Below, piece by piece: positions 2,746 through 2,897 of a DNA stretch of 10,667 bases (position 1 is the stretch's first letter; each line of letters starts with the position of its first letter). The position numbers and the translations under genes were made by a program. Origin of the DNA: a virus; IMG/VR virus record IMGVR_UViG_3300045972_000602; one strand, given 5' to 3'. Under the pieces are notes generated by a model, which was not told where the DNA came from, ran no database searches, and saw nothing but the letters and a program-made list of their open reading frames with translations.

Positions 2746-2842
2746 AGTAGTCTCATAAAGATAGGAGGTTCCCGAGGAATCCTCCAATTTTGAGGGCCCC
2801 CCACCCCCTGCCCGTACTGTCCGAAAACCGTGCTCCTAATTG

Positions 2843-2853
2843 GGTATAAGAAT
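2843..2853 (+). promoter_or_regulatory. Copy 1 of conserved GGTATAAGAAT motif (context gGGTATAAGAATgTATCGAaGCC); putative phage promoter, 44 nt upstream of ATG 2898
   Basis: Copies 1 and 2 share about 20 nt of identity. The TATAAG core occurs six times in the window, always in intergenic DNA and always on the plus strand. That is far more than chance expects in a 62% GC sequence. Confidence 0.4.
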
Positions 2854-2897
2854 GTATCGAAGCCTTTATAACCTACCCAACCACGGAGTTAACAAAT

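Follow-up and report, generated by a model that had tools for sequence, protein, structure and literature searches.

A conserved extended -10-like element marks a candidate promoter class in phages that encode a bacterial-type RNA polymerase

Introduction

Which signal starts transcription at the virus locus IMGVR_UViG_3300045972_000602, and which sigma factor reads it? This IMG/VR record is a contig of 10,667 nucleotides (nt), analyzed over its whole length and referred to below as the window. It has a GC content of 62%, with intergenic DNA less GC-rich than coding DNA. The gene for an RNA polymerase occupies its left end on the minus strand, and a short AT-rich element, GGTATAAGAAT, recurs on the plus strand. 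An initial annotation, made from the letters alone, proposed that this element is a phage-specific promoter. Comparison with related phages shows a motif that does not arise by chance, keeps to one strand and to intergenic DNA, is conserved in synteny and is limited to one gene class. The reading that we favor, at a probability of roughly 0.75, is that GGTATAAGAAT would form the core of a promoter class in phages of ~150-200 kb that possess a bacterial-type RNA polymerase and a sigma-70-family factor.

Results

The element is over-represented in non-coding DNA of the window

Exact copies of GGTATAAGAAT lie on the plus strand at 2843, 3454 and 8751, and a variant, GGTATAAGGAA, lies at 4954 on the same strand, in the positions and orientation first reported. 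Numbered from left to right, these are copies 1 to 4, belonging to the putative promoters P1 to P4 (Table 1). When up to two mismatches are allowed, GGTATAAGAAT has five matches in the window against 0.67 expected, and none of 200 dinucleotide-preserving shuffles reaches five.

The hexamer within the element, TATAAG, occurs six times, only on the plus strand (2845, 3456, 3485, 3514, 4956 and 8753), against 1.21 expected over both strands, and this count is likewise attained in 0 of 200 shuffles. All six hexamers lie in DNA without codon-position GC periodicity, which is the mark of a non-coding setting: the spread of GC between codon positions is 0.04-0.20 around the copies and 0.3-0.65 within genes. 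The excess of TATAAG had been called non-random, intergenic and confined to a single orientation, and each part of that description holds (six of six on the plus strand, none with coding periodicity).

The similarity between individual copies extends well beyond the core. Copies 1 and 2 had been described as alike over about 20 nt; they are in fact 73% identical over 48 nt without gaps (2821-2868 and 3432-3479), a stretch that includes the -35-like box described below, although the end of the consensus given for them was one G out of register (AAGCC versus ATGGCC). The base triplet before the hexamer is GGG in copies 1 and 2 and TGG in copies 3 and 4. A matrix trained on the flanks alone, with the core 8-mer and the window left out, ranks copies 1-3 among the top 0.01-0.03% of all window positions; copy 4 reaches the top 1.8%.

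Two extra TATAAG cores had been reported at 3485 and 3515; the first position is correct and the second is 3514. Neither has the GG before the hexamer, and their flank scores fall in the top 2.9% and the top 12.8%. Folding predictions place each of them in a hairpin of the P2 leader, as its 3' arm. Because GG and the conserved flanks are missing, these cores are probably not promoters of the GGTATAAGAAT class. Their regular spacing also raised the idea of a tandem repeat of three TATAAG cores at 29-nt intervals, which is unsupported by Tandem Repeats Finder.

The placement of the copies relative to start codons is more varied than first thought. A distance of 36-44 nt to the first start codon of each unit had been claimed. 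Only copies 1 and 4 conform, at 44 nt from ATG 2898 and 36 nt from ATG 8798, respectively. For copy 2 the distance is 137 nt to ATG 3599, or 239 nt to the better-supported ATG 3701, and copy 3 is separated from the next gene (5826) by 861 nt, all of it non-coding.

Relatives identified through the polymerase gene

The window is the whole contig, and the genome-wide test of the motif was therefore made in relatives found via the polymerase gene. Among metagenome assemblies, a 100%-identical stretch was returned only in one 1.2-kb Logan contig (SRR35489184), and a metagenome scan with the polymerase yielded distant relatives only. A scan of IMG/VR with the single polymerase sequence gave no matches, so that an alignment-based scan was required; this yielded 387 polymerase relatives, from which 80 loci were fetched, oriented with the polymerase gene on the plus strand, and 74 non-redundant polymerase-upstream regions were counted. 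Scanning IMG/VR for GGTATAAGAATRTAT was uninformative, turning up nothing but isolated chance matches in AT-rich contigs. The major-vault-protein homologue encoded in the window was a further candidate for finding relatives, but its own relatives are unrelated phages with GC contents of 22-59% and without the motif. The vault gene is horizontally mobile, with homologues in unrelated phages and in Kofleriaceae bacteria, and is therefore a poor marker of relatedness.

The polymerase homologues comprise 1450-1600 amino acids, in which beta (Rpb2_3, Rpb2_6) is fused to the N-terminal part of beta-prime (Rpb1_1, Rpb1_2), and are encoded on contigs of up to ~200 kb. Neighboring genes in the relatives encode the separate C-terminal part of beta-prime (Rpb1_5) and a sigma-70-family protein. 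All 38 loci with enough flank have the sigma-70-family gene, at a distance of 7-10 kb on the upstream side of the polymerase gene. The sigma of one relative, L146, has Pfam regions 2, 3 and 4, and the clade sigma retains YA(T/G)WW, as judged against YATWWIRQ, which we take to be the corresponding E. coli motif.

The closest relative, L145, has a polymerase with 63% protein identity to that of the window. Four relatives are in culture: Salmonella phage Arash (180.8 kb) and the Vibrio phages D69, D148 and D181. Searches of the literature found no promoter analysis of these four phages and no paper describing the motif consensus.

The element is conserved opposite the polymerase gene

These loci share an element that faces away from the polymerase gene. 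In 69 of the 74, the strand opposite the polymerase gene carries the pattern GGTA-N-[ACT]-AG no more than 260 nt upstream of that gene, in the arrangement of copy 1 in the window. Facing the polymerase gene it occurs in none of the 74, and random windows of the same size carry it in 4.4% of cases. The five exceptions carry TGTTATAAG or TGGCATAAG, and with these forms included the element is present in 74/74. P1 is the window's syntenic equivalent of this site. L145 has the exact 11-mer with an ATG 30 nt further on, plus another copy in the divergent region.

Positions that the search pattern does not force are also conserved. With the first G of GGTA as position 0, they include A at -18 (49/60) and -17 (51/65), T at -2 (46/69) and -1 (49/69), T at +12 (52/69) and G at +13 (48/69). 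In addition, there is a y-C-w-A-A stretch at -21 to -17, a T-rich stretch at -4 to -1 and AA at +8/+9.

Greedy calling of open reading frames (ORFs) on the metagenomic loci labeled 94-96% of the sequence as coding and missed the micro-ORFs behind promoters. This over-calling makes orientation statistics from these loci unusable, and we therefore relied on the annotated Arash genome and on synteny instead. A test for a Shine-Dalgarno (SD) sequence plus start codon gave 64%, versus 12% at random positions, and does not discriminate direction in divergent regions.

The element precedes one class of genes in the Arash genome

In the complete Arash genome (OQ632216; 272 annotated features), a first-order Markov model predicts 2.6 occurrences of GGTATAAG, and 31 are present. 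Intergenic DNA, 7.9% of the genome, holds 24 of them (P=6e-21). Thirty share a strand with the genes for replication, nucleotide metabolism and tRNAs and with small unknown genes (P=1.5e-8). The annotated start downstream is 12-60 nt away, and in one case it is that of a tRNA, at 12 nt. Among upstream gaps, the motif is present in 28 of 93 on the minus strand and in 0 of 24 on the plus strand, where most genes are structural. An unbiased ranking of intergenic k-mers puts GGTATAA(G) first at every k, with 32 of 40 GGTATAA occurrences intergenic. The genome-wide check of positional bias suggested in the initial annotation thus gives the outcome predicted by the promoter hypothesis, in that the motif is intergenic and specific to one strand and gene class.

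A strict GGTA search in Vibrio phage D69 was negative. Inspection revealed a variant, GTTATAAG, with TGTTATAAGwAAyATGtA before the same kind of genes, and the core common to the whole family is therefore TGnTATAAG.

These data also bear on a simpler account. Intergenic DNA of this GC-rich genome is less GC-rich than its coding DNA, which makes AT-rich words locally likelier, and the copies could represent chance clustering of such words. However, the counts in the window were matched in 0 of 200 shuffles, the flanks fit a model built from other phages, and the element is syntenically conserved in 74 loci and enriched in Arash. The comparative data refute chance clustering, to which we assign a negligible likelihood.

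In Arash, GGTATAAG at 101760, 127771 and 139398 (minus strand) is 224-324 nt from the next annotated gene, and an SD sequence and ATG follow within 25-30 nt. These three boxes probably precede unannotated small genes. The candidate small gene at 139398 conflicts with gp215, which is annotated on the opposite strand.

Predicted architecture and probable reader of the element

Aligned on the first G, the element has the predicted anatomy of a sigma-70-family promoter. A -35-like box, yCwAAa, would span -21 to -16, followed by a 17-nt spacer with a T-rich 3' end, and T(-1)G(0) would correspond to the TG of an extended -10 element. The putative -10 hexamer, T-A-w-A-A-G, occupies +2 to +7; its first T and A are invariant, G replaces the T of housekeeping promoters, and AA follows at +8/+9. 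The predicted transcription start is the purine of a conserved T-R step at +12/+13, 6 nt past the hexamer (approximate window positions in Table 1). The four window promoters would fire rightward, away from the polymerase gene, each opening a short ORF or non-coding RNA unit.

The T-A start of the hexamer (T-12/A-11 in promoter numbering) is present in all four window copies, in all 74 syntenic sites (as GGTA, GTTA and GCATA forms) and in 30 Arash sites. T(-1), which the search does not force, is found in 49/69 clade sites and 18/30 Arash sites, whereas G(0) is fixed by the search. A second box lies in the expected interval of 16-18 nt above the hexamer, and its sequence is yCwAAa rather than TTGACA; tCCAwAA takes the same position in Arash. 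The label "extended -10-like" given to the element is thus appropriate, with T(-1), GG, TAwAAG and a -35-like box exactly 17 nt upstream. The resemblance to bacterial extended -10 sigma-70 promoters comprises the T-A hexamer, the TG one base up, the box 17 nt further and a start predicted 6-7 nt downstream, and it extends to the protein, a phage sigma with Pfam regions 2, 3 and 4 and a tryptophan pair. We infer that a sigma-70-family factor reads the motif, given the matching geometry and a syntenic sigma that retains the tryptophan pair of YA(T/G)WW, by which T-12/A-11 are held.

Whether this factor belongs to the phage or to the host is a separate question. Most phages begin infection using the host polymerase. 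The core fits 8 of the 9 positions of TGnTATAAT and the 17-nt geometry is typical of sigma-70 promoters; a study on E. coli RpoD constitutive promoters is said to mention TATAAG hexamers. Because of the eight matching positions, the host housekeeping sigma is a live rival: the copies would be ordinary host-dependent extended -10 early promoters (TGnTATAAt) read by the host sigma-70 holoenzyme, with the phage polymerase and sigma serving other classes. Several features speak against it. The last hexamer position, -7, is not T in the window, where all four copies have G; unforced clade sites have G in 71/81 and T in 5, and Arash GGTATAA sites have G in 30/40 and T in 2. The -35-like box departs from TTGACA, Arash shows no excess of canonical TTGACA-N17-TATAAT promoters (19 versus 18-27 in shuffles), and polymerase and sigma were detected in Arash virions. 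The deviations are shared by phages of Salmonella and Vibrio and by this 62%-GC phage, such that the consensus follows the phage clade across hosts. Considered together, these data make a host-read promoter unlikely.

Sigma-70 reads A-11 and T-7 base-specifically (PMC4593229). On sequence grounds, G at -7 counts against a housekeeping sigma and not against the sigma-70 family as a whole. The reader is probably the phage's own sigma, which is favored because G(-7) and the non-TTGACA box persist across very different hosts and GC contents.

A further alternative places the function of the box outside promoter recognition, as the operator of a phage DNA-binding regulator or as an RNA-level processing or stability signal at message 5' ends. 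The element is short, conserved, asymmetric and upstream of genes, and CCyTTwAAC (+19 to +30) and CCTACCC show that the leaders hold other conserved signals. However, its spacing and sub-elements fit a sigma-70-family promoter, it comes after terminators and opens units, and in Arash it stands 12 nt before a tRNA gene and before ~30 operon starts. The box is also non-palindromic, unlike most operators, and an RNA signal would need a promoter further upstream, where none is conserved. We consider both forms of this alternative very improbable.

Comparison with known phage promoters

The element had been likened to the middle and late promoters of phiKZ-like phages. Their early promoters are the closer analogy, and the polymerase is not phiKZ-like and is accompanied by a sigma-70-family factor. 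The early promoters of phiKZ and AR9 are AT-rich motifs of ~10 nt centered at -10, which were found bioinformatically before early operons and are read by the virion polymerase (PMC7598289). The present element is similar in that an AT-rich box of ~10 nt lies near -10, before non-structural operons, in phages with multisubunit polymerases; polymerase was also detected in virions of Arash, where it may represent carry-over. In contrast, the motif sequence is unlike that of phiKZ and AR9 early promoters, and the polymerases are built differently. Those of phiKZ and AR9 have split beta and beta-prime subunits and a non-sigma specificity subunit (gp68/gp226), whereas the clade has a beta/beta-prime-N fusion, a gene for the C-terminal part of beta-prime and a sigma-70-family gene. 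A sigma-less split polymerase with a gp68/gp226-type subunit was not found in the clade, for which no search aimed at a gp68 homologue was made.

The T4 late promoter consists of TATAAATA at -10 and is read by the phage sigma-like protein gp55. The element may be compared with T4 late promoters in being AT-rich, specific to phages, of -10 type and unlike the host consensus. It differs in sequence (TATAAGAA versus TATAAATA) and in the presence of TG and a -35-like box. A T4-type late promoter is ruled out by these differences and by the lack of the motif in all 24 Arash plus-strand (structural) gaps.

Timing and a candidate second promoter class

Both polymerase subunits (gp206 and gp216) and the sigma (gp10) were detected in Arash virions, with possible carry-over noted by the authors (PMC10585845). 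The GGTATAAGAAT class would be early or middle, because the Arash motif precedes non-structural and tRNA genes, never structural genes, and because polymerase and sigma are found in virions.

The polymerase gene itself never has a GGTATAAGAAT-type motif on its own strand. On that strand, 30 of the 74 relatives have CTA[TG]A[CA]T[TA] 0-29 nt ahead of the polymerase start codon (background 0.8%; opposite strand 0). This conserved box is CTATACTT in relatives and CTATCTTT in the window, where an identical 8-mer also lies at 5719-5726 (plus strand), 100 nt before the vault-protein gene. The earlier suggestion that the beta gene belongs to a different temporal class is supported by this box.

In Arash, structural, portal and beta-prime genes have cCTAAAATAc 25-35 nt upstream (for example at 30659, 109282, 128120, 137660, 139441, 142729 and 173537 on the plus strand), which makes it a candidate late promoter class. 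In divergent regions of Arash, cCTAAAATAc and GGTATAAG often stand back to back. These phages appear to have at least two promoter classes, TGGTAwAAG versus CTATACTT in close relatives or CTAAAATA in Arash.

Discussion

Several points weigh against the interpretation of GGTATAAGAAT as a promoter core read by a phage sigma. Its functional statements are based wholly on comparative sequence evidence, and the host extended -10 consensus is matched by TGnTATAAG at 8/9 positions. Conservation of the -35-like box is weak (0.3-0.85 bit per position), and crude ORF calls on the metagenomic loci gave no orientation bias beyond the syntenic site. In the window, which is the entire source contig, there are four motif copies only and no sigma gene; just two of the four copies directly precede a gene, and the fit of copy 4 to the flank model is moderate (top 1.8%).

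If the promoter interpretation is correct, GGTATAAGAAT would represent the first promoter consensus for this phage family, with defined sub-elements. It would let transcription units be annotated across hundreds of metagenomic genomes, and already points to unannotated small genes in Arash. It would also make the use and specificity of the polymerase's own sigma directly testable in a cultured phage, with the conserved G, where a housekeeping sigma requires T, as a mutable handle on sigma specificity.

A broader model is tentative, and we think it more doubtful than probable. In it, the motif would mark the regulon of a self-contained phage transcription system. The beta/beta-prime-fusion polymerase would be delivered in the virion and pair with a phage sigma whose -10 reading has undergone a T-to-G switch at -7, insulating early genes from host sigma-70 and rendering infection independent of the host polymerase. 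One of the promoters might also produce a structured ~0.8-kb non-coding RNA in front of a horizontally acquired vault gene in an RNA-repair-like cluster.

Predicted transcription units of the window

The coordinates of the putative promoters, the units that they would open and the neighboring genes are collected in Table 1. Each unit had been said to end in an intrinsic terminator. This is clear for 3079-3114 (-17.2 kcal/mol, z -4.8, with U6 next) and 9083-9127 (-29.3 kcal/mol, z -4.7), whereas the candidates at 3373-3399, 4248-4267 and 5754-5785 are weaker. The recurring pattern is a short motif-led unit, a terminator and then a larger gene without the motif that starts 20-30 nt on.

Table 1. 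Putative promoters, transcription units and genes of the window
Feature	Position (strand)	Description
RNA polymerase gene	1..2745 (-)	N-terminal 915 amino acids; Pfam Rpb2_2, Rpb2_3; divergent from P1
CTATCTTT	2757..2764 (-)	11 nt before polymerase ATG; candidate second-class promoter
P1	2822..2856 (+)	-35-like CGAAAA 2822-2827; core GGTATAAGAAT 2843-2853; hexamer TATAAG 2845-2850; predicted start A2856; flank score top 0.01%
P1 unit	2898..3114 (+)	44-amino-acid ORF 2898-3032 with SD GGAG; intrinsic terminator 3079-3114; next gene ATG 3132
P2	3433..3467 (+)	-35-like CTAAAA 3433-3438; core GGTATAAGAAT 3454-3464; predicted start A3467; flank score top 0.03%
P2 unit		130-235-nt leader; small membrane-protein ORFs (3599 or 3701 to 3925; 3918-4052); terminator 4248-4267; next ATG 4291
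Extra TATAAG cores	3485-3490, 3514-3519 (+)	each exactly 29 nt past preceding core
P2 terminator	4248..4267 (+)	short, GGGGA...TCCCC + U6; closes P2 unit
2H/CPD-phosphoesterase-like gene	4291-4677 (+)	
P3	4933..4967 (+)	-35-like TCGAAA 4933-4938; core TGGTATAAGGAA 4953-4964; predicted start A4967; flank score top 0.01%
P3 unit	4967..5785 (+)	predicted ~820-nt non-coding transcript ending in hairpin GGGCCACGTAACGGCCC 5754-5770 + T-rich tract; vault-protein gene follows at 5826
Major-vault-protein homologue gene	5826-8435 (+)	869 amino acids; Pfam MVP_shoulder 2.7e-25, Vault_3
P4	8729..8766 (+)	-35-like CATAAA 8729-8734; 18-nt spacer; core TGGTATAAGAAT 8750-8761; predicted start 8764-8766
P4 unit	8798..9127 (+)	60-amino-acid membrane ORF 8798-8980 with SD AAGGAG; strong terminator 9083-9127; next ATG 9156
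AAA_33 kinase-like gene	9156-9626 (+)	
cREC receiver domain	10285-10665	

The gaps between terminators and larger genes (3112-3132, 4267-4291, 5785-5826 and 9127-9156) follow terminators with a shared tail, TTTTT(T)CCA. This arrangement suggests that the larger genes are expressed via terminator read-through or via an unrecognized promoter that overlaps the terminators. The P4 sequence is also present in a Logan contig, L141.

The region downstream of P3, immediately ahead of the vault-protein gene, may encode a large non-coding RNA. Positions 4678-5825 form ~1.1 kb without a coding signal. The transcript region has a minimum-free-energy z score of -2.4, obtained with 20 shuffles only, and no codon-position GC periodicity. 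L145 shows a similar order, with the motif followed by ~350-430 nt of non-coding DNA and then a terminator. No credible match to the non-coding RNAs was found in Rfam at E values up to 10, and blastn with the P3 transcript DNA against all fetched loci returned no similar sequence.

The predicted leaders share further short sequences. At 19-30 nt past the start of the motif, each of the four window copies has a CCyTTwAAC box, as do L145 and L146. CCTACCC occurs six times in the window against 1.55 expected (0/200 shuffles), four of them on the plus strand in non-coding DNA (2872, 3421, 3578 and 8778); in the P1 and P4 5' leaders it appears as AACCTACCC, 27-29 nt past the motif start. Among relatives, many of L148-L227 have the putative polymerase-divergent promoter followed by a conserved hydrophobic micro-ORF of 15-20 amino acids (for example MVIQIALILAALLLK) and then a terminator. 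In L151, L152, L163 and L220, the same promoter precedes a leader starting GUGCCCC(G/A)G, in which one hairpin shows an apparently compensatory difference between L151 and L152.

Non-coding DNA of the window also contains elements that resemble parts of tRNAs. T-arm-like elements (GGTTCGAAnCnTGC) occur three times, at 4863-4879, at 5326-5342 and at 8513-8529, the last with a perfect GCGGG/TTCGAAT/CCTGC arm at 8510-8526, and a stretch resembling an acceptor plus D arm, GGGGCGGTAGTTCAGCGGTCAGAAC, lies at 8577-8601. Neither ARAGORN at default settings nor Rfam found a tRNA in the window, and ARAGORN calls at lowered thresholds showed no excess in non-coding over coding DNA. These elements may be decayed tRNA genes, an idea raised because tRNA arrays in Arash interleave with the same promoter.

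The polymerase and vault-protein genes

The window polymerase contains an insertion of ~290 amino acids, at residues ~573-862 (window ~162-1029, minus strand), that is not present in homologues. BLASTP matches cover 62-63% of the query, and the conserved columns skip from residue 572 to residue 863. The insertion had no match in Pfam. The polymerase stretch AGSTHWGINLPGEMSDIDLHV recalls what we take to be a G-S...D-x-D nucleotidyltransferase signature, and is a lead only. Some polymerase homologues hold other internal domains, namely a GNAT acetyltransferase and PF18823.

The closest homologues of the vault protein have 59-61% identity and include metagenome-assembled genomes named Kofleriaceae/Myxococcales. 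The third-codon-position GC of the vault gene is 0.92-0.98, well above that of its neighbors. This suggests that the gene was acquired horizontally not long ago, and it hints at a host among the myxobacteria. Near-identical 17-nt hairpins flank the gene (GGGCCACGTAACGGCCC at 5754-5770 and GGGCCACGATACGGCCC at 8467-8483) and could be terminators or the edges of an acquired cassette. The phosphoesterase-like, AAA_33 kinase-like and cREC genes near the vault gene together resemble an RNA-repair gene set.

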